DNA of 44,476 bases, from IMG/VR virus record IMGVR_UViG_3300025876_000039. One strand, 5' to 3'. The translations under genes were made by a program, and so were the position numbers. Below are positions 5,563-44,476 of the stretch, one piece after another (position 1 is the first letter of the stretch; every line of letters starts with the position of its first letter). The notes under the pieces were generated by a model. It was given only the letters and a program-made list of their open reading frames with translations, searched no databases and had not been told where the DNA came from. The DNA is from a virus.

Positions 5563-5715
5563 ATGACTATTCCTTTTAAAGTTAAATTACTTACAGATAC
5601 TGCAAAAGCTCCAGAAATGGCAAATGAAGGCGATCTTTGGGACATATTCGCAGATGGGTTTTGTGCTAAAAATCAAGATTTTAGAGATGTTATTAAAAAG
5701 AATGATTTAGAGTAG
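5563..5715 (+). pseudogene. 50-aa ORF resembling only the N-terminus of dUTPase (possible gene remnant)
   Basis: MTIPFKVKLLTDTAKAPEMANEGDLWDIFA resembles the dUTPase N-terminal strand (..IKvKkL...AklPeyAtegsAGlDL.a). The ORF then terminates, and the later dUTPase motifs are absent. Confidence 0.3.
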
Positions 5716-6089
5716 TGCCATTAGGTCCAGAAGATTTACAGCATAAACAATTTGCAAATACGATAAAGCATTATAAAGCCCTTAACAAGCTTAATTGTTG
5801 TTTTTGGTCTTATAGCCCTAGCGGCGAGAAAAGAAATGCCATAACAGGTTCTCTGTTGAAAGCTAAAGGACTAACAAAAGGAATACCTGACTTTGAATTT
5901 AGATTGCTTAAAGATAAGATTATGCAGCATATTTATATTGAGTTTAAATATGGTAAAAACAAACAATCACCCGAGCAAGTCTATTTTCAAAAAACTTGTG
6001 ATGAATCAATTAATGATAACTATTATCTAGCTTATTCTGTAGATGATGCGATCAACATATTAATTGATAATGGAGTGATTTTAAAATAG
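5715..6089 (+). CDS. VRR-NUC domain nuclease
   Basis: GTG start. GIPDFEFRL...IYIEFKYGKNKQSPEQVYFQ...YYLAYSVDDAINIL fits the VRR-NUC D..ExK / Q layout. Confidence 0.7.
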   Translation: MPLGPEDLQHKQFANTIKHYKALNKLNCCFWSYSPSGEKRNAITGSLLKAKGLTKGIPDFEFRLLKDKIMQHIYIEFKYGKNKQSPEQVYFQKTCDESINDNYYLAYSVDDAINILIDNGVILK

Positions 6090-6170
6090 AATCCACTCAA
6101 CAATAATATAAGCTACTAATACCGCAGCTAGTGGTATAAACATCCAGTAAGTCTTAAGAAATTTAATCAT
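6081..6170 (-). CDS. 29-aa hydrophobic peptide (last gene of the late operon; tentative)
   Basis: MIKFLKTYWMFIPLAAVLVAYIIVEWILF. Its ATG overlaps the upstream stop (ATGATTAA), which suggests translational coupling. Confidence 0.3.
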   Translation of the reverse strand: MIKFLKTYWMFIPLAAVLVAYIIVEWILF

Positions 6171-6492
6171 TGTTAACTTCAAAATAACCTAGTTCTAGTG
6201 CGTCTTGATAAGTAATTAATCCTTTTTTTAACTCTTCCAAAGGGCAATCAGAATTAATAGCATAAATTACATCCGTAATATTACCTTGAATGCTACCAAT
6301 AATAGGCATATGTTTATCATCGCAGTTACAAGTTGAGTTTTTGTGTAAAATAGGCATAGTATATCTATATGTTTTATTGTTAAGATTATACCCTAGTATA
6401 TTGTTAGCCGTACCTACTTTAGGGTTATAGTCATGACCTACTTTATCATAAAAATATTCTAATGACGACTTTTTATATCCTAAAAATATCAT
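6163..6492 (-). CDS. Hypothetical protein
   Basis: 109-aa ORF whose start overlaps the upstream stop. Confidence 0.7.
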   Translation of the reverse strand: MIFLGYKKSSLEYFYDKVGHDYNPKVGTANNILGYNLNNKTYRYTMPILHKNSTCNCDDKHMPIIGSIQGNITDVIYAINSDCPLEELKKGLITYQDALELGYFEVNND

Positions 6493-7265
6493 GAGTCTAA
6501 TGTGTATTTATTGTTTAAGTAATTATATAACTGGTTTCTTTCAGTTGTATTAACATTTTTTGTATAAAAAATTAATTCTTGCATTTCACCTTCAAAATAA
6601 TTATTGAAGGAAACCGCTATTGAAGGCGTAGCTATTGTACTAAAAGTATTAAATGTTGTTGCAAAAGTTAAGCTATTATTTAAATAAACATTCATTGATG
6701 AGTTGTTCACCACTACATTATAAACTTTATTTTTATTAAGAGTGACGCTAGTCTCTGAAAAAGCAACTTGTTTACGGTCGTTAGATCCAAAGTCATCATA
6801 AATATCACCATTTGTTCCTGCTTCAATCCCCCCATAATGATTAGATAATTTAGAAGGTGATCCAAATTTCCAATGCGATCCATTACGAGCGGCGACTGCA
6901 CCAGATGAAGTATCTTTAATAACAACAAATCCACTAATAGTATTTACTCCATTAAATATATCAGGGCAGCTCAAAAAATCATTAACACCATCAAATATAA
7001 CTTTTTTATTTATTGAATCGTAAGTAGGTTGATTTGTAGATGTAACTTGTGTTAGATGGTTGTCGTTACCCGAAGCATCATTCCACTGACTAATCTTAGA
7101 TGCGCCATTAAAAACAAATTGACTAGAATCGTTACATTTAAACCAAGCTATTAAATTAGATATAGTTTCTGGCTCTTCTGGTGGCGGTGGCGTGCCTACA
7201 CCTCCTAATAAGTTCTTTGTCAAATCACTTACTAGATTATTTGTTAAATTTACAGTCAATGTCAT
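6489..7265 (-). CDS. LamG / concanavalin-A-like lectin domain protein
   Basis: LIAWFKCNDSS...ISQWNDASGNDNHLTQ...NQPTY...VIFDGVNDFLSC is the typical Laminin_G_3 N-terminal pattern. A proline-rich linker PPPPEEPE precedes it. Confidence 0.65.
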   Translation of the reverse strand: MTLTVNLTNNLVSDLTKNLLGGVGTPPPPEEPETISNLIAWFKCNDSSQFVFNGASKISQWNDASGNDNHLTQVTSTNQPTYDSINKKVIFDGVNDFLSCPDIFNGVNTISGFVVIKDTSSGAVAARNGSHWKFGSPSKLSNHYGGIEAGTNGDIYDDFGSNDRKQVAFSETSVTLNKNKVYNVVVNNSSMNVYLNNSLTFATTFNTFSTIATPSIAVSFNNYFEGEMQELIFYTKNVNTTERNQLYNYLNNKYTLDS

Positions 7266-7618
7266 TTTTCAATCCAATTAATTTTTAAAGGCAAATTGTA
7301 ATATTTAACAACATATTCAATCCTTTTAGAATATTTGTCATAATCTTCTTTGCTGCCAATAAGTAGGCAATGCGGCTCTTTATTTTGTTTTGCTCCATAA
7401 TATAGAGCTTGCCCTAAACATTCAGCCCATTTCTTTGCGTGGTCATACTCAATGGCTTCTGCCTTAGTTAAGCAATCAACTCTTGTACTATCATCATTTC
7501 TAACCTCTGTAGCGCCATTTACGAGATCGCAATGTATATCTTGATAATACCTTTCTGTCTTTGCTTGCGCGTCCTTAAAAAAGAAAAAGCTAATAAGTAT
7601 TATTAATGATTTTTTCAT
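7262..7618 (-). CDS. Secreted protein with cleavable signal peptide, function unknown
   Basis: MKKSLIILISFFFFKDAQA is followed by a Cys-containing 100-aa domain. Confidence 0.65.
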   Translation of the reverse strand: MKKSLIILISFFFFKDAQAKTERYYQDIHCDLVNGATEVRNDDSTRVDCLTKAEAIEYDHAKKWAECLGQALYYGAKQNKEPHCLLIGSKEDYDKYSKRIEYVVKYYNLPLKINWIEK

Positions 7619-7754
7619 ATAATCCTTTTTGTAAATATCTTTCTTATTTTCTTTGGCAAAGACTTAATAAATCTTTTTAATCTTGTAAACATAATTTGTC
7701 ATTTATTTTATAAAAATAACACTAAATCACTACTTTAGTTAAAGTATACTTGTA

Positions 7755-8354
7755 TTAAATACTTATTTTTCTAGTTACCCAGTTGCCTTTTATTTTTTCA
7801 GCAAATTTAACCTCATTTCTATTATCGGCTTCATGTTCGCTAAAGCCTAGATGCAATATATTATTTTCAATTAATAATTGGTCAAATTGAATTCTAGATT
7901 GAATAACTAACCTTGCTAGTTTATCAGGGGCTAATTCCATACCCAATATTGTAGCTTTAATATCAGCGGCTAAACCTGCCATGTGGCGGCTAGTAGGAGA
8001 GCCACCGACTAATAGATTAACCTGCCAATTTCTGTAGCCACTTGTTATTGTAATTACAACATTACTAGTATTAAATTTTTCTTGTAGAAATAGATGCAGG
8101 TGCTGCAATTTATCGGAGGTTTTAAGCAAATTTTCTAATATTCTTTGCTCGGTCGGTCTATTATTTATACCTTGTTCTCTAGCTGTTCTTGAAGCGTAAA
8201 ACTCGGTATAGTGAAAATTAGCATTTCCAAGTTCTTCAATTTCAATGAGGCTGGCACTATTTTGCTGATACCTTTCATTATTGCCATATATGTTCTTGCT
8301 TGGCTTTTTCTTTTTGCAAAAAATAGATAGTAGGTTTTTAATAAATTTCATCAT
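7755..8354 (-). CDS. Endolysin, peptidase M15-type (D-Ala-D-Ala carboxypeptidase-like zinc peptidase)
   Basis: ITSGYRNWQVNLLVGGSPTSRHMAGLAADI plus a downstream His (ILHLGF) matches the SxHxxGxAxD zinc-binding layout. Sits in a lysis-cassette context. Confidence 0.75.
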   Translation of the reverse strand: MMKFIKNLLSIFCKKKKPSKNIYGNNERYQQNSASLIEIEELGNANFHYTEFYASRTAREQGINNRPTEQRILENLLKTSDKLQHLHLFLQEKFNTSNVVITITSGYRNWQVNLLVGGSPTSRHMAGLAADIKATILGMELAPDKLARLVIQSRIQFDQLLIENNILHLGFSEHEADNRNEVKFAEKIKGNWVTRKISI

Positions 8355-30504: not shown

Positions 30505-30540
30505 AATAGAGTTTTAAGCGTCCCTGCTGGCTACTCTATT
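30505..30540 (-). promoter_or_regulatory. 8-bp stem hairpin abutting the portal start codon
   Basis: AATAGAGT (30505..30512) pairs with ACTCTATT (30533..30540) around a GC-rich 20-nt loop. On the minus-strand mRNA the 3' arm ends 1 nt before the AUG. Confidence 0.4.
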
Positions 30541-30578
30541 ATTGGATAAAAAAAAATCAATAGAAAATAAAAAAGTTC

Positions 30579-30607
30579 TTGAGTATTAAAAAATGATTAA
30601 TTATATA
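30579..30607 (+). promoter_or_regulatory. Candidate sigma70-like promoter TTGAGT-N17-TATATA
   Basis: TTGAGT at 30579..30584 and TATATA at 30602..30607. Oriented against the late operon. Confidence 0.35.
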
Positions 30608-30614
30608 AATTAAT

Positions 30615-30702
30615 AGCTGGCTTGATCACCAGTCCTTTCTTGTTCCACTAGAACAATACAATATGCTATTTTATAAGGCGGTAGCAATACCGCTTTATTT
30701 TT
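30615..30702 (+). ncRNA. Candidate ~85-nt small RNA (three hairpins, the last an intrinsic terminator)
   Basis: Stems CTGG/CCAG (30617..30632), TTGTTC/GAACAA (30640..30656) and GCGGTA-GCAA-TACCGC (30678..30693), followed by TTTATTTTT. The T-run is present only in the + orientation. Confidence 0.3.
30678..30702 (+). terminator. Rho-independent terminator (+ orientation)
   Basis: GCGGTA-gcaa-TACCGC stem-loop followed by TTTATTTTT. Confidence 0.55.
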
Positions 30703-31086
30703 AAAGTATAAGTTTAAATGAATAAGAAGGAAAAAATAGCGCATTGTAAAATAACCAGCAAATTAAAAGAAGTGGTTGTCGGATTCTAGTGACTTAACAG
30801 TGATAAACTTATCCAAATTTTACAATTAAGCTCCTTAACTGATCGCTAAGTTCTGTTTGCAAAGTGAAATAAAACCTTCCTAGTGGTCGTATGCTTGGCT
30901 TTGGGAGGATAAAGTGGAGGTAATGCTCCGACAGTGATTGCTTTATAGCAAGGATTCAGAAGTAATATTATATTAGGGAGAAAATCACCTGCCCGTTTTA
31001 CATCATTTGTGAAAATCTTGTAAAATCTTCTAAGCATATTTTGTTAAAGGACTTTGCGATAACTCAAAAGCATGACTTTTCAAAAT

Positions 31087-31112
31087 AACCCTTTTTAATC
31101 GAAGGGTTTTTT
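31087..31112 (+). terminator. Rho-independent terminator (mainly + orientation, possibly bidirectional)
   Basis: AACCCTT-tttaatcg-AAGGGTT followed by TTTT(G). On the minus strand the stem is followed by ATTTTG. Confidence 0.55.
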
Positions 31113-31176
31113 GCGTCTAAACAATGCTCAAATCTAAAAGCATAACATTAAGTTAATAGTAAATACATTATAGCAC

Positions 31177-31205
31177 TTGACATATTAAGAAAAATATGAT
31201 ATACT
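31177..31205 (+). promoter_or_regulatory. sigma70-like promoter TTGACA-N17-TATACT
   Basis: TTGACA at 31177..31182 and TATACT at 31200..31205, 30 nt upstream of the ATG at 31235. Confidence 0.45.
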
Positions 31206-31234
31206 TGATTTATTACTAATAAAATTAAAAAAAT

Positions 31235-31399
31235 ATGAAAATCCAACACACAATAAAAGAATTAGCAATCATTGAATTATTTAAAGGTCAAGAATTAACT
31301 GGTCAAGCTGCTGAGACTTACAGTCGTTTGATTAACTTGATTAATAGCAATGCTCTTGAGAGATCAAAAAGGCAAGCTGGTTATTATTGGAGTAAATAG
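31235..31399 (+). CDS. 54-aa ORF convergent with terminase (not in the ORF track; tentative)
   Basis: MKIQHTIKELAIIELFKGQELTGQAAETYSRLINLINSNALERSKRQAGYYWSK. Has its own consensus promoter. Its stop lies 1 nt from the TerL stop. Confidence 0.4.
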   Translation: MKIQHTIKELAIIELFKGQELTGQAAETYSRLINLINSNALERSKRQAGYYWSK

Positions 31400-31400
31400 G

Positions 31401-32699
31401 CTACAAGACATCCCAGATAGATATATTTTGCTTGATATAATCCACTAAAGCATATCTAATAGCATCTATCCCATGATCCCAGCCAGCAGTATCATTAACA
31501 ACTGGCAATACTTCTTTAGTGTTTTTGTCGATCTTATAAGAATAGTTTTGAAACTCTTCTAAAACCTTCTTGCAGTCTTCGTGAATTATAACTTTATTAA
31601 ATCCTTTAATATATTCTATACCATCAATTATTAAGCTGCTTTTAGTCTCACCCTCACTCCTATCACTAGACTTTGAAGCCCCTTCTATGTTAAAACCCCT
31701 TCTAGCTAGATAAGATATAGTTTCAGGTCTTGAATTATCCGCTTTTATTTGCCACCTTCTGCTATCAGGTATTTGATCAAATAAGGCTGGTAAGTCATCT
31801 ATTTGTGTTTGATATCCGTAAATCTCTTTATCAATATATAAATTATTATCCATTATAAATAATCTAATTAACACTGTAGGATCATTAGCAAAGCCCCAGT
31901 CTGCACCATAAAACAATCTATTCATATATAGATCGTTTATTGGTGGCGTTTCAAACTTAGCAACCTCATATTTGCCACTAAATATAATCTCTTCAGGATT
32001 CCCGATTGGTATTCCTCCGTATTCGTGCTGGTAAGCTTCAAAGTTATTTATCTTTAGCTTTTCTGCGTCTGCAAAAAACTTCTCACCGAGCCAATGTCTA
32101 GGGACTTCTTGATAATTAGAATGATGAATTAATCTATCATCATTTATTTCATCTTGGACTTTATTTACCCAGTGATTAGGGTTTCTTGGTGGGTTGTAGG
32201 TAAAGAACTCAACAAACTTATCACCACCCCTTAAAACTGATTGCTTGACACTTCTTATTTCTTCTAAGCCGCTGTATTCCTCGCCTTCTTCGAACCATAA
32301 ATATTTAAAATAACCTTTTCTTAATTTGATTGATTTTAACTTGCTAGGCTCATCTAAACCCCGCATAATTATTTTTTGTCCAGTTGGCAAATAAGTTATT
32401 TCAGAAGGGGATTTAATATGATCAAAGTATTTATCCACCCCTAGCATATCAATAGCGAATAATAGCGTTTCTAAAACCGAAGTCCTTATTGTATTAGCTG
32501 TTTTTCTGATAGCGATTGCATTGGCTGTAGGGTCGTTTATTATACCCAAGATTATTTGCTCTGCAACAAAGGTTGATTTAGTGCTACCCCTGCCGCCTCG
32601 TAGCCAAAACTCGTTGTAAGTCTCGTCTCTAATATCTCTATGGACTTGATGAAACGATGGAGCTATTATTTGAGATAATTTAATATCATTAGAGATCAT
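31401..32699 (-). CDS. terL: Terminase large subunit (PBSX/Terminase_3-like)
   Basis: Walker A LRGGRGSTKST, Walker B-like YLWFEEGEE, and a C-terminal nuclease region with AGWDHGIDAIRYAL. Confidence 0.9.
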   Translation of the reverse strand: MISNDIKLSQIIAPSFHQVHRDIRDETYNEFWLRGGRGSTKSTFVAEQIILGIINDPTANAIAIRKTANTIRTSVLETLLFAIDMLGVDKYFDHIKSPSEITYLPTGQKIIMRGLDEPSKLKSIKLRKGYFKYLWFEEGEEYSGLEEIRSVKQSVLRGGDKFVEFFTYNPPRNPNHWVNKVQDEINDDRLIHHSNYQEVPRHWLGEKFFADAEKLKINNFEAYQHEYGGIPIGNPEEIIFSGKYEVAKFETPPINDLYMNRLFYGADWGFANDPTVLIRLFIMDNNLYIDKEIYGYQTQIDDLPALFDQIPDSRRWQIKADNSRPETISYLARRGFNIEGASKSSDRSEGETKSSLIIDGIEYIKGFNKVIIHEDCKKVLEEFQNYSYKIDKNTKEVLPVVNDTAGWDHGIDAIRYALVDYIKQNISIWDVL

Positions 32700-33072
32700 C
32701 TTTTATAACTCTTGGCAATAGGTCGCCACCATCTTTGGCTGTCAATTCATTTCTTAAACTAAACTCTTCTTTGCATTTCCTTTCTAGCCACCATTTGGAG
32801 CTTATATCATCGCCTTCTTTTATCTTGTTTACAATATTCATTTTAGCCTTTATATCTACGCTTTTTCTTACTGCGTTCATTTCGTCAACAAAACTGGGGT
32901 GCCTTTCACTATGATTATAATAAGTCTGCTTTGAAATCTTTGTGAAAATACAAGCTTGATCGATAGTAAGTCCATTTGAAAAAGCTGTTTTAAATTCTTT
33001 GACTTTATCAGGCGTTATTGCCTCAGGTCTTCCAGCGTCTTTATGCAAATGTTTAGGCTTCTTTTTAGTCAT
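32689..33072 (-). CDS. terS: Terminase small subunit (HTH type)
   Basis: AGRPEAITPDKVKEFKTAFSNGLTIDQACIFTKISKQTYYNH...SKWWLERK. Directly upstream of and overlapping TerL. Confidence 0.7.
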   Translation of the reverse strand: MTKKKPKHLHKDAGRPEAITPDKVKEFKTAFSNGLTIDQACIFTKISKQTYYNHSERHPSFVDEMNAVRKSVDIKAKMNIVNKIKEGDDISSKWWLERKCKEEFSLRNELTAKDGGDLLPRVIKDDL

Positions 33073-33073
33073 A

Positions 33074-33844
33074 TTATTTGTTAATAAAAGCTTTTAATGG
33101 ATAAAACACTAGTGAATTGCGATAACCTCCTTTAGCATAATTTTTTATAGGAGTTACGGCGTGCATATTTCTCCAAGCTGGGTAGACAAGCATTGAATTA
33201 TCTGATTGGTCAAATACTGCGTCATAATCAGGAACGACCAAATTGTTCCCCTCACTACCTTTTCTTTTTGTGATAATAACATTCAAAGAATTAGGTATAT
33301 TTCCATTGTCAACGTGAAAATCTGCGTTAATATTAAAATTAGATATAGAGCTGGTAAATATATTGCCAATTTTCCACTTTGGATCCACCTCATTATCAAA
33401 TAAATTTTTTATATAACCATATTGTTTTGGCATATATTCTTGTATTATTTTTTCGCTTTCCTTAGCTAATAATAACATACCTTTTATAAAATTTTGTGCC
33501 GTCTTCACTTGGTGAACAGAAGATAAAGATGGATAAGGTCTTCTCATGTGAGGTTTAGGAGGTATAGAGCCTATAATTGTCGAGTATTGCAATACTTCAT
33601 TACTTGGGTCAGTAAAGCCGCTCGACCTTTTCATTACAGATTTAGGAACTCTTTTACTCCTTAACTCTGTATCACATAAATTCGCTAACTTAGATATTTT
33701 ATTGGGCAAGTTTTTAAGGAAAAATCCAACAACTTCTCCATTTTCAATTAATAAACAAGAATCTAAGATATTGGGATTTAATTCTGGACTTTTACCTCCA
33801 GTTTTAAAGCCGTGAGGATGCTTTTTAAGTAAAATCTTATCCAT
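33074..33844 (-). CDS. TET/JBP-family 2OG-Fe(II) dioxygenase (nucleic-acid base oxygenase)
   Basis: FHVDNGNIPNSLNVIIT (HxD: H177/D179), NMHAVTPIKN (H228) and RNSLVFY (R242) parallel the TET blocks HRDxHN..GST.V, LHATTP and R.SLVFYQH. Confidence 0.75.
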   Translation of the reverse strand: MDKILLKKHPHGFKTGGKSPELNPNILDSCLLIENGEVVGFFLKNLPNKISKLANLCDTELRSKRVPKSVMKRSSGFTDPSNEVLQYSTIIGSIPPKPHMRRPYPSLSSVHQVKTAQNFIKGMLLLAKESEKIIQEYMPKQYGYIKNLFDNEVDPKWKIGNIFTSSISNFNINADFHVDNGNIPNSLNVIITKRKGSEGNNLVVPDYDAVFDQSDNSMLVYPAWRNMHAVTPIKNYAKGGYRNSLVFYPLKAFINK

Positions 33845-34509
33845 TATAAATTGCCTTTTTCTTGTTTTAATTTATCTAATAAAAATTTTCCTATATACAT
33901 CTCTTTACTTCTCCAAAATTTAACTAACTCTGAAGCTTCTTCGTAATGATCGGAGTTAAATTCTATCTGAATTGCCTTTTTAACATCACTAGACATATCA
34001 TTTAATCTTTCGTTATCTTCTTCATCTAAAAGTGAATAATCTATATTATTTTCACCAATTTCTATATGCAAATCTTGAATTTCAACATCTATGTCGTCTA
34101 AATTAGTATTTAACCCTTCTAGCCAATTTTTTAAATTATCTTCATTGATTGGATTAGTTTTTTGATTAAAAACTTGTAATAAATATTTTATAGCTGTTTT
34201 TTTGTTTGGCAAATCTAAGAAGGTGCAGTTTAACTTACTTGGTATATTGTAGCCTTCTGATTCTAGTTCTATTAAAATATCTTTGCGGCAATGCCCGTCT
34301 ATAATATAAATCTTATCTTCATCTTGCCACACATAAATTGAGCTTGCGAAGCCGTTACTAATAATACTTTGCTTAACTTTCTCACTATGGTAATTATTTT
34401 TAAGATTAACTGGCTGTAAATCTTGCAAATCTTGCCAAGTAACTCTTTCAGTTTTTAAAATTAAGTCTTTTATTTGCATTTTGAATATTTGTTGCTGTTT
34501 ATTTAACAA
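33844..34509 (-). CDS. ParB N-terminal (ParB-like nuclease) domain protein
   Basis: ...IYVWQDEDKIYIIDGHCRKDIL is a DGHHR-type ParB/Srx motif. Acidic C-terminal half. Confidence 0.7.
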   Translation of the reverse strand: MLNKQQQIFKMQIKDLILKTERVTWQDLQDLQPVNLKNNYHSEKVKQSIISNGFASSIYVWQDEDKIYIIDGHCRKDILIELESEGYNIPSKLNCTFLDLPNKKTAIKYLLQVFNQKTNPINEDNLKNWLEGLNTNLDDIDVEIQDLHIEIGENNIDYSLLDEEDNERLNDMSSDVKKAIQIEFNSDHYEEASELVKFWRSKEMYIGKFLLDKLKQEKGNL

Positions 34510-34543
34510 TAATTTGACTTTTTAAAATAGCAATATATTAAAA

Positions 34544-34613
34544 GCAACGGGGATAGTTTTGAATATCCGCCGTTGCGCCCTCGTGAGTATGTCCCTATTC
34601 ACGAGGGTTTTTT
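34544..34613. terminator. Double hairpin between the MTase and ParB-like genes (bidirectional terminator, or a small + strand RNA)
   Basis: GCAACGG/CCGTTGC (34544..34576) and CCCTCGTGA/TCACGAGGG (34578..34607) followed by TTTTTT on +. On the minus strand the 7-bp hairpin is followed by TTTT. Confidence 0.5.
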
Positions 34614-36192
34614 AATTTAACAAAAACCTTTCATCAATCTTTATTCTTGTTTGAGAATATTTTAAATATTCCTCTTCAGTAGCTCCCATCTCGTAAGCTT
34701 CGGATTTATCTTTTATCCAGCCCAATAGATTAGACACTTTAACATTGAAATGCTTAATAAACTCTTGATTGAATTTTATATGAATAGTCCCTTTTTTAAA
34801 TATTTTTATTGTTGCAAATAGCTTTATTTTCTCTTCTTGACTATCAGAACAATGTATTTCTCTAGCTTTGCCATATTCCCAAGATTTATGAGGCAAATCA
34901 ACAACATAACCAAGCGTTCTTGCTACTGTGCAGACATCGCTTAAAATGTTTTGTGTTTCATTTCCAGACATACTATAAGAATATCTAAACTCGCCGTCTT
35001 GCAAATGATTCTCGCCCCAAGATTCAAAAATAATTCGATTGTCAAGTATTACCATATCTATTTTTCTTTTGTTATTATATCTAAAATCATCATTAACCCA
35101 AGTTTTTTTATTTGATTTATAATTGATTATATTTTTTTCATCTGTGAATTGATAAAATAAATCTATTAGCTGCTCATCAATATATTTATTAGCATTTTTA
35201 ATAGCCCAAATGACAACCGCATAAATATTTGATTCGTTAAAATCTACTTTATTACTCAATTTTTTCCTAAACTCATCTCGATATTTTATACTTAATCGCT
35301 CATTGATCGGTCTAAATTTTGTAAATAATTCCTGCCAATATATTATTTTCAAATTCTCAATCCTCTTTTGCAAAGCCTCTTTTAAATTTTGTATTGATAC
35401 CCCTAGTTCATTTAATAACCCAGCATCTAATTTTGAGATATTACGATAATTTTCAAAAATACTATTAAGCTCAACATCATATAGATTGCATAGAGTTTTT
35501 ACCAAGCTGTCGCCTTGCACTACATCGCCTAAGCCCTTTTTTATTTTACCTTCTATCTCTTCCCGAATTTCTTTTTTTTCATCTTTTATATTAAAAGTTT
35601 TTTCAAAAAATAGACTAAATGCGTCTTTTTGTTTTGCTCCATAATATAAAGGCTTGCTAAAAATTACAAGATCAACATAAGCCCTTGCTTTCCTTTCAGC
35701 GTCCAAGAAATCATAATTTCCAATAATACGACTATCCCAGCCTCTTTTTTTAATTATATCTTGTATATGCTCATCACTTGACCATCTAGAAGGGATAACC
35801 ATGATTACATTCCTGCTGGTGGACTCTTCTAATATCTTTTTAGTCCATTCCTTAAATTGGCTGTATGGTGGGTTACAAAAAATATTGCCAACTTCTTTAT
35901 CAATTAGTGTTTGTTGGTAAAAATCCGTGCCAATAATTATAATCGATGGATCACAATTTTTTATTAAGATTTCTGATTTTTCAATGCCGAATTTTTGATC
36001 AAAACTATCTAATTTTTGCAAAGTCTGACCATTGCCGCAGCCAATATCTAAAATTGACCCCCCTAATTTAAGACTATTAATTTTATTTATAATTTCATCG
36101 GTTGTCGGATAGAATTCCCAGTCTTGATTGTTTTCTTTGAGATTGCTCAATAAGTCTTTCATATTTTTATTGTTTTTGTTGTTAAAAATCAC
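34612..36192 (-). CDS. SAM-dependent DNA amino-methyltransferase (NPPY type, N6-A or N4-C) with a long C-terminal domain
   Basis: FYPT, motif I ILDIGCGNG and motif IV FCNPPY (aa 105-110) in gamma-class order. About 400 further residues are of unknown function. Confidence 0.75.
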   Translation of the reverse strand: MIFNNKNNKNMKDLLSNLKENNQDWEFYPTTDEIINKINSLKLGGSILDIGCGNGQTLQKLDSFDQKFGIEKSEILIKNCDPSIIIIGTDFYQQTLIDKEVGNIFCNPPYSQFKEWTKKILEESTSRNVIMVIPSRWSSDEHIQDIIKKRGWDSRIIGNYDFLDAERKARAYVDLVIFSKPLYYGAKQKDAFSLFFEKTFNIKDEKKEIREEIEGKIKKGLGDVVQGDSLVKTLCNLYDVELNSIFENYRNISKLDAGLLNELGVSIQNLKEALQKRIENLKIIYWQELFTKFRPINERLSIKYRDEFRKKLSNKVDFNESNIYAVVIWAIKNANKYIDEQLIDLFYQFTDEKNIINYKSNKKTWVNDDFRYNNKRKIDMVILDNRIIFESWGENHLQDGEFRYSYSMSGNETQNILSDVCTVARTLGYVVDLPHKSWEYGKAREIHCSDSQEEKIKLFATIKIFKKGTIHIKFNQEFIKHFNVKVSNLLGWIKDKSEAYEMGATEEEYLKYSQTRIKIDERFLLN

Positions 36193-36213: not shown

Positions 36214-36242
36214 ATAATAACATTAAGCTTTTATAATGTCAA
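36214..36242 (-). promoter_or_regulatory. sigma70-like promoter TTGACA-N17-TATTAT driving the late/packaging operon
   Basis: The minus strand reads TTGACATTATAAAAGCTTAATGTTATTAT. Its ends match the divergent + promoter. Confidence 0.5.
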
Positions 36243-36363: not shown

Positions 36364-36392
36364 TTGACATTATAATTGATTAATATTATTAT
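36364..36392 (+). promoter_or_regulatory. sigma70-like promoter TTGACA-N17-TATTAT driving the right early operon
   Basis: TTGACATTATAATTGATTAATATTATTAT, about 40 nt upstream of the ATG at 36435. Confidence 0.55.
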
Positions 36393-43093: not shown

Positions 43094-44302
43094 ATGAACA
43101 AAAAACAAGTCCAGCAAAAAGTATTACAAAACGGCAAGCCTCTTGCATTAAGTAAATTTACTTGGTGCGAGAAAACTATGACATTTTCAAGTGATGAAGA
43201 TAATTTAGTTTTTGCTTTTCAAAATATTGAGGGGGTAAAGATAATATCTAGAGATTGGTCAATTCAAACAGCAGGGTATAATTCAACTCAAACAGCAGGG
43301 AATGGCTCAACTCAAAAAGCAGGGCATAATTCAACTCAAAAAGCAGGGGCTTATTCAACTCAAACAGCAGGGAATGGCTCAACTCAAAAAGCAGGGCATA
43401 ATTCAACTCAAAAAGCAGGGGCTTATTCAACTCAAACAGCAGGGGCTGGGTCAACTCAAAAAGCAGGGCATAATTCAACTCAAACAGCAGGGGCTTATTC
43501 AACTCAAACAGCAGGGGCTTATTCAACTCAAAAAGCAGGGGCTTATTCAACTCAAACAGCAGGGGCTGGGTCAACTCAAAAAGCAGGGCATAATTCAACT
43601 CAAACAGCAGGGGCTTATTCAACTCAAAAAGCAGGGGCTTATTCAACTCAAAAAGCAGGGGCTTATTCAACTCAAACAGCAGGGGCTGGGTCAACTCACT
43701 TTATTGACGATCGTTGCCAAGTTGCTACAGGTTATGAATCAATAATTCATGTCAATGGTAATGATTGCGCTATAATTAACAGAAATGTATTCGAGTTAAT
43801 ACAACCAAAATCAGGAGATATTATCCAGATAAGCCCTGATAATATTGGGGGTCATCTAGTCAATGGTATTCATAGCATAACTGGTAAAAAATCTATCATT
43901 GCTGACGGCATATTGTCGGAAGTAATATCAAAGAAAGGTAATGTTTATAAAGTGATAAATCACGGAAAAACTAAGCCAAGCTACTTGATAGAAAGTGAGG
44001 TTAATGATAAGAAGGTATATTCTCACGGCAAAACTTTAAAAGAGGCTAGAGAGTCTCTAATCTATAAACTATCAGATAGAGACAGTTCACAATATAAAGA
44101 TTTAACTTTAGATAGTGTATTGAGTAAAGAAGAGGCTATTAAGTGCTATATGACTATAACTGGAGCTTGTATTAGTGGCACTAAGTATTTTGTTGACAGG
44201 TTGAAAGATGATAGAAAAGAGTTGAGTGTTGAAGAAATTATAAATTTAACTCAAGGTCAATATGGGCATGATAAGTTTAAGGATTTCTTTAATAATACTT
44301 GA
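43094..44302 (+). CDS. Ice-nucleation-protein-like octapeptide-repeat protein (copy A of the tandem duplicate)
   Basis: Identical 402-aa product to 183..1391. The nucleotide sequence is identical wherever I compared it. Confidence 0.85.
   Translation: MNKKQVQQKVLQNGKPLALSKFTWCEKTMTFSSDEDNLVFAFQNIEGVKIISRDWSIQTAGYNSTQTAGNGSTQKAGHNSTQKAGAYSTQTAGNGSTQKAGHNSTQKAGAYSTQTAGAGSTQKAGHNSTQTAGAYSTQTAGAYSTQKAGAYSTQTAGAGSTQKAGHNSTQTAGAYSTQKAGAYSTQKAGAYSTQTAGAGSTHFIDDRCQVATGYESIIHVNGNDCAIINRNVFELIQPKSGDIIQISPDNIGGHLVNGIHSITGKKSIIADGILSEVISKKGNVYKVINHGKTKPSYLIESEVNDKKVYSHGKTLKEARESLIYKLSDRDSSQYKDLTLDSVLSKEEAIKCYMTITGACISGTKYFVDRLKDDRKELSVEEIINLTQGQYGHDKFKDFFNNT
43265..43696 (+). repeat. 18 x 24-bp in-frame tandem repeat (copy A)
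   Basis: Same array as 354..785, offset by 42,911 bp. Confidence 0.95.
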
Positions 44303-44327
44303 CTATATAAATTATATACATCATAAT
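44299..44327 (+). promoter_or_regulatory. sigma70-like promoter TTGACT-N17-CATAAT (same sequence as 122..150)
   Basis: Lies within the wrap-around overlap. Confidence 0.55.
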
Positions 44328-44359
44328 ACTAAAAATTACTAACTAAAACAAAAAACAAT

Positions 44360-44476
44360 ATGAACAAAAAACAAGTCCAGCAAAAAGTATTACAAAACGG
44401 CAAGCCTCTTGCATTAAGTAAATTTACTTGGTGCGAGAAAACTATGACATTTTCAAGTGATGAAGATAATTTAGTT
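44360..44476 (+). CDS. 5' partial of the octapeptide-repeat protein (same sequence as 183..299)
   Basis: MNKKQVQQKVLQNGKPLALSKFTWCEKTMTFSSDEDNLV... runs off the window end. Confidence 0.85.
   Translation, partial: MNKKQVQQKVLQNGKPLALSKFTWCEKTMTFSSDEDNLV

Follow-up and report, generated by a model that had tools for sequence, protein, structure and literature searches.

Phage 5mYOX dioxygenases of clades A and B need an adjacent C5-MTase and act on 5-methylcytosine (5mC) at GpC, and their product is often glycosylated next (Burke et al., PNAS 2021; PMC8256090). Where a phage 5mYOX gene has a ParB-like neighbour, O'Toole et al. [quoted passage not shown] In that study just ~6% of the contigs with a phage 5mYOX carried a C5-MTase, and in E. 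coli most of the ParB-associated enzymes assayed produced <5% 5hmU. The ParB-dependent thymine dioxygenases, exemplified by the 5mYOX176/ParB176 pair, make up 5mYOX clade C1 ('clade E' in the preprint); a C-terminal extension, which 5mYOX176 needs for its activity, was reported only in these enzymes, and the ParBs associated with 5mYOXs consist of a nucleotide-binding N-domain, a disordered linker and a C-domain, with no DNA-binding domain (PMC13229309). Trypanosome JBP1 and JBP2, of the TET/JBP family, are also thymine-to-5hmU dioxygenases acting on DNA. Finally, the ParB-terminase (Tls) loci, in which a ParB-like gene and genes for DNA-modifying enzymes (methyltransferases, TET/JBP) lie directly upstream of the terminase, were predicted to carry out packaging-linked modification (Iyer, Zhang and Aravind; PMC4738411 and the 2013 NAR paper cited there). 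They are a type defined computationally, with no demonstrated mechanism.

The locus analysed here comes from an uncultured, marine, myovirus-like phage (IMG/VR record IMGVR_UViG_3300025876_000039; the window is this whole stretch of 44,476 nucleotides). On the minus strand of this ~44-kb genome, directly upstream of the terminase genes, lie the genes for an NPPY methyltransferase with a C-terminal DUF4942 (34612..36192; ORF of 526 aa; Pfam, PHROG), a ParB-like partner protein (33844..34509; 221 aa; AF2, Foldseek, homologs) and a TET/JBP-family (5mYOX) Fe(II)/2OG DNA-base dioxygenase (33074..33844; 256 aa; Pfam, AF2, Foldseek). The first-pass annotation had put these three ORFs at the head of the packaging operon; its coordinates were correct, the motifs that it quoted are all present in the translations, and its three domain assignments (NPPY methyltransferase, ParB-like, TET/JBP) proved right. 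Next come, on the same strand, the small terminase subunit TerS (32689..33072; PHROG 4102, 7.8e-21) and the large subunit TerL (31401..32699; Pfam Terminase_3 and Terminase_3C, 1.2e-34 and 4.6e-12). The ParB stop codon overlaps the TET start codon by 1 nt, a single nucleotide separates the TET stop codon from the TerS start codon, and TerS overlaps TerL by 11 nt, so closely are TET, TerS and TerL packed. ParB and TET adjoin each other directly, in translational coupling with TerS/TerL, and the core of the locus is a two-gene module, ParB-like plus TET/JBP (5mYOX), within a 'ParB-terminase' locus. A putative sigma-70-like promoter (36214..36242, minus strand; TTGACA-17-TATTAT, TG-extended, 11/12, a consensus match only) lies ~20 nt upstream of the methyltransferase ORF and faces a divergent plus-strand promoter, also a consensus match, at 36364-36392. 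Between the methyltransferase and ParB genes, folding of the minus strand predicts two tandem GC-rich hairpins (34544..34607), a probable intrinsic terminator or attenuator, the second of which is followed by UUUU on the coding strand (34540-34543); their MFE is -35.6 kcal/mol (z = -5.6), and equal stability was reached in 0 of 200 shuffles.

The 256-aa protein carries the motifs FHVDNGN (176-182), NMHAVTPIKN (226-235) and RNSLVFY (242-248). Its match to Pfam Tet_JBP (PF12851; E 7e-9) scores 35.6 bits against a gathering cutoff of 34.9, which is marginal for the single sequence, and PF12851 is precomputed for all 120 of its homologs among the matches listed. When its AF2 model (pLDDT 91.9, pTM 0.90) was compared with the PDB by Foldseek, ranks 1-26 were taken by TET2, CMD1, NgTET1 and CcTet (E down to 5e-11, TM 0.71), and the TET-family structures outranked FTO and AlkB. 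The iron triad H177-x-D179 (nt 33308-33316) and H228 (33161-33163), together with the 2OG-binding R242 (33119-33121), are invariant in 38 homologs and also kept when actinophage TETs are aligned with them; the block of the distal His and the Arg can be matched to that of TET2. By fold and catalytic residues, the protein is a TET/JBP (5mYOX) Fe(II)/2OG DNA-base dioxygenase. It belongs to a clade that is very common in aquatic metagenomes, with >3,500 clusters when proteins are grouped at 90% identity. JBP1 and JBP2, with which it shares the family, differ in being eukaryotic, large and multidomain (J-binding or SNF2), in lacking a ParB partner and in having their product glucosylated to base J.

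As in 5mYOX176-type systems, the dioxygenase gene, with its TET/JBP fold and HxD...H...R residues, immediately follows a ParB-like gene, whose product has the same layout as the published partners: an N-terminal ParB fold, a disordered linker, a C-domain and no DNA-binding domain. Its likely real start is the ATG at 34479, 10 codons downstream of the ORF start (211 aa), according to gene calls on identical contigs and the N-termini of homologs. In the AF2 model, a ParB/Srx-fold N-domain (residues 17-130, nt 34120-34461; pLDDT >90) is joined by a linker (152-184, <50) to a conserved two-helix C-domain (186-220, nt 33850-33954), and no HTH DNA-binding domain was seen. Foldseek relates the N-domain to ParB-CDP, Noc, MxParB, PadC and KorB; the DGHCR motif (71-75) supplies the GxxR box (G72/R75), and S48, G72, R75 and N115 are invariant across homologs. 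The profile searches agree in part with the ParB assignment: fold and homologs are those of ParB, but the window protein itself has no Pfam match at E <= 1, including ParB_N (PF02195), and only weak PHROG matches to ParB families (3e-5). The N-domain belongs to a divergent subtype, 'DGHxR', which ParB_N misses, a difference from the 5mYOX176-type partners. Full-length homologs at 32-38% identity are PF02195-positive, and the C-domain shares 58% identity with the one in a ParB_N partner that Pfam does detect, whereas the N-domains have diverged.

We then compared the locus with its relatives. Of 80 related IMG/VR loci, 77 have a ParB with the conserved C-domain upstream of TET; the remaining three each have <750 bp of DNA on that side. 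The arrangement recurs with at least three types of terminase. Conservation of the C-domain is specific to loci with TET; the same N-domain with different C-termini occurs beside a Mom-family enzyme (L094) or with no TET nearby, and in P0144 a ParB N-domain is fused to an amino-MTase (N6_N4 methyltransferase). The closest annotated phages are the Prochlorococcus siphoviruses MED4-184, P-HS2 and MED4-117, with the same ParB-TET-TerS-TerL order and a TET 49% identical to ours; they lack a DUF4942 MTase, and an FkbM-type Methyltransf_21 gene separates their ParB from TET. The TET in these records is wrongly annotated as 'queuine tRNA-ribosyltransferase', and the ParB as 'DNA methylase'. Roughly 60% of the relatives have an FkbM-type methyltransferase or an unknown ~240-aa family in this slot. 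In loci whose TETs are 54-64% identical, AADT (PF18724), GATase, TAGT or a P-loop protein lies there instead: AADT plus GATase in five loci, AADT alone in L083, and in L069 a P-loop match that is weak and misses the Pfam cutoff. Distant actinophage homologs are found in ParB-TET-aGPT-Pplase-'5-hmU DNA kinase' operons. The frequent terminase association and the AADT and GATase of close relatives are features shared with the 5mYOX176-type loci.

These comparisons bear on the role of the ParB-like protein. It could be a packaging or partition factor (binding a pac site, acting as a nuclease or segregating a plasmid-prophage) that merely adjoins the terminase, with TET acting alone. A ParB/Srx fold with a GxxR box, encoded in the packaging operon, is compatible with that, as are the missing C-terminal extension of the window TET and the existence of thymine dioxygenases that are independent of ParB (PMC13229309). 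However, such a role would not account for a ParB gene that stays ahead of TET next to different terminases, for a C-domain that goes specifically with TET, for the lack of an HTH domain or for the overlap of the ParB stop and TET start codons, and experiments have shown that ParB activates neighbouring 5mYOXs (PMC13229309). We therefore regard a packaging or partition role as quite unlikely.

The methyltransferase stands apart from this module. It contains FYPT (27-30), ILDIGCGNG (47-55) and FCNPPY (105-110), with G51, G53, G55 and N107-P108-P109-Y110 invariant in 35 homologs, and 1362 homolog clusters share its length; its likely real start, on the same grounds as for ParB, is the ATG at 36162, 10 codons downstream (516 aa). 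The first reading as an NPPY amino-type enzyme stood, but its C-terminal ~400 aa are not wholly uncharacterised, as had been thought: the catalytic domain extends over roughly residues 21-199 (nt 35596-36132) and DUF4942 over 279-488 (nt 34729-35358; Pfam E 6e-15). We found no functional literature on DUF4942. The protein matches Pfam Dam/MTS weakly (phage Dam included) and PHROG 'DNA methyltransferase' families (2.9e-11), and the best sequence match of its family profile in the PDB is the rRNA adenine-N6 MTase ErmAM (2.2e-7); the enzyme is of the amino type and probably a DNA adenine-N6 methyltransferase.

The first-pass annotation had grouped the three genes into one cluster. If they formed a single pathway, the NPPY/DUF4942 enzyme would make 6mA (or N4-methylcytosine), the TET-like enzyme would oxidise or remove the methyl group, and ParB would target them. 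The genes are indeed co-oriented and adjoining, with one strong upstream promoter; CcTet, a fungal TET homolog among our structural matches, was crystallised on 6mA-containing DNA; ParB N-domains fused to amino-MTases exist, as in P0144; and MTases have been described as part of ParB-terminase loci (PMC4738411). Yet the DUF4942 MTase was found in 0 of the 80 related TET loci, only 3 of 36 loci have an MTase of any kind in the 2.5 kb ahead of ParB (an amino-MTase motif in 1 of 36), and the closest homologs, at 57% and 43% identity, belong to phages with neither ParB nor TET. Since terminator-like hairpins also follow the gene, apparently insulating it transcriptionally from ParB-TET, the MTase is a separate, self-contained module outside the TET pathway, and a functional trio did not survive the comparison. 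With the TET clade tied to 5hmU-processing enzymes instead, we consider the single pathway very improbable.

The other striking feature of the locus, the absence of a C5-MTase, was borne out: the motifs PCxxxS and ENV were not found in any of the six frames of the window, and PF00145 had no match among its 58 other ORFs. The premise that characterised phage TETs oxidise 5mC installed by an adjacent C5-MTase has, however, been overtaken by the demonstration of ParB-dependent thymine dioxygenases (PMC13229309). If a ParB-linked 5mYOX is a thymine dioxygenase, a missing C5-MTase is what one would expect, and most of the puzzle is thus solved by the recent literature. As regards the substrate, the dioxygenase could alternatively act on 5mC, like the clade A and B enzymes of the same superfamily, which also modify DNA after replication, and like the eukaryotic TETs; because this genome, unlike those of clades A and B, has no C5-MTase of its own, the 5mC would have to come from a Dcm-like enzyme of the host. 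The best structural matches, TET2, NgTET1 and CcTet, are 5mC dioxygenases, a genuine C5-MTase lies close to ParB/TET in 5 of 83 related loci, and the characterised phage thymine dioxygenases also oxidise 5mC in vitro (PMC13229309). But no structure of JBP or of a phage thymine dioxygenase is among the PDB matches listed, which makes the bias towards 5mC enzymes uninformative; 94% of the related loci have no C5-MTase within the available sequence; close relatives carry thymidine-specific hypermodification enzymes such as AADT; and His1904 of TET2 corresponds to Leu250 here, invariant across the clade. Oxidation of 5mC is, in our judgement, unlikely.

Taken together, it is rather probable that the ParB-TET module makes 5hmU from thymine in the phage DNA, with ParB as an activator and the methyltransferase apart. 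Thymine is favoured as substrate by the lack of a C5-MTase, the thymidine-hypermodification genes of relatives, the actinophage operons with a 5-hmU kinase and the published experiments; the first-pass annotation had rightly listed it (JBP-like, giving 5hmU) among the candidates. The 'undescribed route' that it also proposed is unlikely, given the ParB-dependent thymine dioxygenases (PMC13229309) and the separable MTase. In the predicted reaction, the dioxygenase, with Fe(II) and 2-oxoglutarate, would hydroxylate thymine at its C5-methyl group after the phage DNA has been replicated. The ParB-like protein, as the cognate partner, would activate this enzyme or load it onto DNA by means of its ParB-fold N-domain and conserved C-domain. 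The end product would be 5hmU or a further oxidised form, probably at a subset of T sites and late in infection, in step with the packaging genes. 5hmU is the predicted end point since the phage has no gene for a kinase, an amino-acid:DNA transferase, a glycosyltransferase or an FkbM-type methyltransferase: the Pfam census of the window found no kinase, AADT or GT, so that, in contrast to 5mYOX176-type loci, hypermodification genes (P-loop kinase, AADT, GATase) are missing, and neither the ParB-TET slot families nor MT21 occur anywhere in it. About half of its ORFs have no Pfam match, and an unrecognised downstream modifier could exist among them. That such modification is coupled to packaging, as the first-pass annotation suggested, is already a published prediction for ParB-terminase loci (PMC4738411; PMC8256090).

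The real difference from the known ParB-dependent enzymes is that the marine clade lacks their C-terminal extension. The window TET ends 14 residues after R242, with no extension after the conserved Cys, and all 38 sequences of the clade terminate at the same place. The actinophage ParB-linked TETs run 34-69 residues beyond this Cys in an alignment at only 22-27% identity, in which they stood in for the assayed enzymes 5mYOX176, 185 and 97, making the clade placement indirect. The mode, or even the existence, of ParB dependence may consequently differ in this clade. A tentative extension of the thymine reading, which we hold as possible but doubtful, is that the ParB-like protein is a modular adaptor, in which a shared N-domain would load onto or clamp DNA and exchangeable C-domains would pick the enzyme (TET, the Mom-family enzyme of L094 or the fused N6_N4 MTase of P0144). 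The extension-less marine TETs might then use a different ParB-TET interface, around the strongly conserved 'DYSxLDE...GVKKAIQIEF...HYEEA.ELVKFWR' domain, and plain 5hmU might be a terminal, sequence-selective mark made as the DNA passes to the terminase.

For phage TET loci in general, the absence of a C5-MTase is normal, and the methyltransferase adjoining this one is an independent module. The families that fill the ParB-TET slot in relatives, the FkbM-type methyltransferase and the ~240-aa unknown, point to undescribed chemistry, and an abundant ParB-linked clade without the C-terminal extension is a useful contrast for studying ParB activation. If the prediction is true, this phage would be a natural case of post-replicative thymine oxidation that ends at 5hmU, without bulky hypermodification.

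On the minus strand the genes of the locus run in the order MTase (34612-36192, 526 aa), ParB-like protein (33844-34509, 221 aa), TET-like protein (33074-33844, 256 aa), TerS (32689-33072, 127 aa) and TerL (31401-32699, 432 aa), the two terminase subunits being clear by both Pfam and PHROG. The first-pass annotation had reported this cluster, and all of the motifs it quoted were recovered in translations of the window ORFs. Since the first 299 bases of the contig are identical to bases 44178-44476, the genome is circular or terminally redundant, with a length of ~44.2 kb. It has a G+C content of ~31% and a myovirus-like structural module. A 10-kb Megablast query had no match among cultured phages, and the best tblastn identities to cultured phages reached only 39% for TerL and 33% for the tail sheath, so the phage has no close cultured relative. 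tRNA and Rfam scans of the window found nothing, and a repeated promoter-like motif, TTGACTATATAAA, was not clearly above chance.

Two other regions of this genome deserve mention. A 402-aa gene with Pfam Ice_nucleation repeats and a weak match to the gp5 C-terminal beta-helix is present in two identical tandem copies (183-1391 and 43094-44302) that span the contig junction. The spacer between them is promoter-like and slightly unlike the upstream regions of other copies; the pair may reflect either a true tandem duplication or an error of assembly. The interval between TerL and the portal gene (30507-31400, ~0.9 kb) holds unusually few genes. It contains a reverse-oriented ORF of 54 aa (31235-31399, plus strand), which the gene calls of the identical contigs L004 and L005 include as well, preceded by a near-consensus TG-extended promoter (31177-31205, by consensus match), as well as a terminator-like hairpin (31087-31108, plus strand).

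The TET-like protein matched Pfam Tet_JBP just above the gathering score (E 7e-9; 35.6 bits against 34.9). A single-sequence PDB search gave only E ~2 to TET2, so a structure-based search was needed. The AlphaFold model (pLDDT 91.9, pTM 0.90) found TET2 (E 5e-11, TM 0.71), CMD1, NgTET1 and CcTet as best PDB matches, with FTO and AlkB behind. As these best matches are all TET-family DNA-base dioxygenases, membership of a non-nucleic-acid 2OG oxygenase family is excluded and the proposed TET/JBP identity holds. Residues H177, D179, H228 and R242 are invariant in the 38 clade members. The family is very large: at E <= 1e-5 it comprises over 3,553 clusters, and many members, recovered from metagenomes of JGI, ENA, Logan and Tara, are ~60% identical. 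In the contig collection an identical copy of the protein was found in 40 blocks, including ENA ERZ807159 and JGI 3300009505 (23 contigs read). The label 'queuine tRNA-ribosyltransferase' (PHROG 6059, RefSeq) was rejected as a misannotation, both Pfam and fold giving TET/JBP; it is carried by the TET/JBP gene within 5656-7780 of NC_020847.1 (related locus L001) and by several actinophage RefSeq records.

A six-frame scan of the window revealed neither C5-MTase motif IV (PCxxxS) nor motif VI (ENV), and the only NPPY within a real ORF was that of the reported MTase. A Pfam census of the 58 further ORFs (two runs, 13 families each, lists complete) contained no PF00145, and likewise no kinase, glycosyltransferase, amino-acid:DNA transferase or amidotransferase. 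The scan and the census thus uphold the absence of a C5-MTase. The first-pass annotation had treated this absence as a puzzle, to which the answer is already in print: phage TET/JBP enzymes encoded away from any C5-MTase gene act as thymine dioxygenases (O'Toole et al., PNAS 2026; preprint 2025; PMC13229309). In the same study ParB proteins co-occur on 27% of the mined 5mYOX contigs, terminases on 19% and C5-MTases on only 6%. One 5mYOX subclass needs a co-encoded ParB-like activator, as illustrated by 5mYOX176, which produces ~1% 5hmU alone and ~35% with ParB176 (PMC13229309).

We surveyed 80 IMG/VR loci in which the TET shares 54-64% identity with that of the window, and classified the neighbour genes using HMMs derived from sequences collected for the analysis. 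A ParB with the conserved C-domain lies upstream of the TET in 77 of them, and in the 3 exceptions the available upstream sequence is shorter than 750 bp. Of the 45 loci with enough downstream DNA, at least 32 have TerL after TET. ParB is directly adjacent to TET, as in the window, in 16 loci; an FkbM-type Methyltransf_21 (MT21) gene separates the two in 30, and one or more other genes do so in 31. These other genes include a conserved 234-249-aa family with no Pfam match (16/80 loci, including L042 1407-2255 and L048 2381-3085), a TAGT glycosyltransferase (PF20691, 1.4e-8; 7 loci), AADT (PF18724, 2.7e-17) together with GATase_6 (5 loci; AADT also in locus L083) and, in locus L069, a gene that matches P-loop (AAA_18) weakly, with a score under the Pfam cutoff. 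Distant actinophage homologs lie in operons of ParB, TET, aGPT-Pplase, '5-hmU DNA kinase' and terminase. Among annotated phages, the Prochlorococcus siphoviruses MED4-184, P-HS2 and MED4-117 come closest (TET 49% identical), in which the order is ParB, MT21, TET, TerS, TerL and the product names are wrong; the ParB_N gene of MED4-184, for example, is mislabelled 'DNA methylase'.

AADT and the kinase act on thymidine-derived 5hmU, an established pathway cited in PMC13229309, and the presence of these genes in relatives therefore argues by context that the clade oxidises thymine. A genuine C5-MTase ORF does lie close to ParB/TET in 5 of 83 related loci (L073 377-1441, L034 3538-4659, L039 3851-4978, L027 2177-3268 and L080 5780-6883), either immediately before ParB or in the interval from TET to TerL, and the characterised thymine dioxygenases also oxidise 5mC in vitro (PMC13229309). 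On these grounds 5mC is a possible, though less likely, substrate of the clade: the same enzymes might act on 5mC besides or instead of thymine in these five phages, and host-installed 5mC is a possible substrate in the window. Thymine is the favoured substrate of the window dioxygenase and, since none of the slot families of the relatives occurs anywhere in the window, the predicted end product is 5hmU or a further-oxidised form.

The first-pass annotation had tied the MTase to this system, and here it was mistaken: the DUF4942 MTase was found in 0 of the 80 related TET loci, its closest homologs (57% and 43% identical) belong to phages without ParB or TET nearby, and a search by motif placed a methyltransferase of any kind in the 2.5 kb ahead of ParB in just 3 of 36 loci. 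We therefore rejected it as a conserved third partner. Its architecture, with DUF4942 at residues 279-488 (6e-15) and weak Pfam matches to Dam and MTS around the NPPY region, is that of a distinct and widespread family (1,362 clusters, ~525-550 aa). The 100-130-nt gap between MTase and ParB contains two tandem GC-rich hairpins followed by a U-run (34540-34607, minus strand; MFE -35.6 kcal/mol, z = -5.6), which probably act as a terminator or attenuator and would allow separate regulation of ParB-TET-terminase. A single-sequence PDB search gave nothing useful, so a family profile was needed; this matched ErmAM, an rRNA adenine-N6 methyltransferase, over residues 21-199 (2.2e-7). Together with the NPPY motif, invariant across homologs, this match supports an amino-methyltransferase, probably one that acts on adenine N6, with DNA suggested as its target only by PHROG labels. 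We found no functional literature on DUF4942, which from its position may be a target-recognition domain.

The ParB-like protein has no Pfam match and only weak ParB-like PHROG matches. Its nearest relatives are likewise Pfam-negative; relatives 32-38% identical over ~90% of the length match Pfam ParB_N. Residues S48, G72, R75 (GxxR box) and N115 are invariant in the alignment. The AlphaFold model has a confident N-domain (17-130), which matches the fold of B. subtilis ParB-CDP, Noc, M. xanthus ParB, PadC and KorB; a linker predicted as disordered (152-184) leads to two helices at the C-terminus, and a helix-turn-helix DNA-binding domain is absent. The 5mYOX-associated ParBs of O'Toole et al. 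are built in the same way (PMC13229309). We also considered the 221-aa protein as a counterpart of the relatives' FkbM-type methyltransferase and rejected this, as it matches their ParB.

The two parts of this protein appear to be modular. The C-domain (156-218) shares 58% identity with its counterpart in a Pfam-positive ParB_N partner, and the N-domains of the same two proteins are not alignable by BLAST. The window-type N-domain with the same C-domain is found in the order ParB, TAGT, TET, terminase. With a different C-terminus (L094 5001-6310; also L095) it is directly followed by a DNA-modification gene of the Mom family (PF25680) with a terminase downstream, and with a third C-terminus there is no TET nearby. 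These three context comparisons show the C-domain to be the part of ParB that tracks with TET. In the homolog P0144 the N-domain is fused to an N6_N4 methyltransferase.

The placement of the TET-like protein in its clade rests on gene context and actinophage proxies. A C-terminal extension, starting after a conserved Cys (C280 of 5mYOX176), has been reported only in ParB-dependent 5mYOXs and is essential in 5mYOX176 (PMC13229309). In our alignment five actinophage ParB-linked TETs have this Cys followed by 34-69 further residues, whereas the window TET and four other marine or cyanophage sequences end at it, as do all 38 marine-clade members. The window clade is thus ParB-associated but lacks the extension, and the window also lacks the hypermodification genes typical of the subclass. 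What distinguishes it is a dioxygenase without the extension, a divergent ParB N-domain and no downstream modifiers.

The description that fits the cluster best is that of a ParB-partnered phage 5mYOX, a putative thymine dioxygenase, at a ParB-terminase locus. Thymine, one of the candidate substrates in the initial interpretation, is the favoured one; that interpretation overstated the novelty, as the idea of modification coupled to packaging was already in print (PMC4738411) and was repeated by Burke et al. (PMC8256090). The pairing with a Mom-family gene in L094 suggests that ParB adaptors serve several modification enzymes, and the 234-249-aa slot family is a candidate for a new 5hmU-modifying enzyme. 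MT21 occupies the slot in ~40% of relatives (30/80; for example L013, L014, L016, L017, L027, L001 at 6297-6998 and L006 at 6322-7014), the culturable phage MED4-184 among its carriers. The PNAS authors only counted the FkbM-type gene as 'O-MT' (PMC13229309), and the literature we searched describes no chemistry linking such a methyltransferase to 5hmU DNA or JBP in phage; its presence may mark an undescribed methylated 5hmU derivative.
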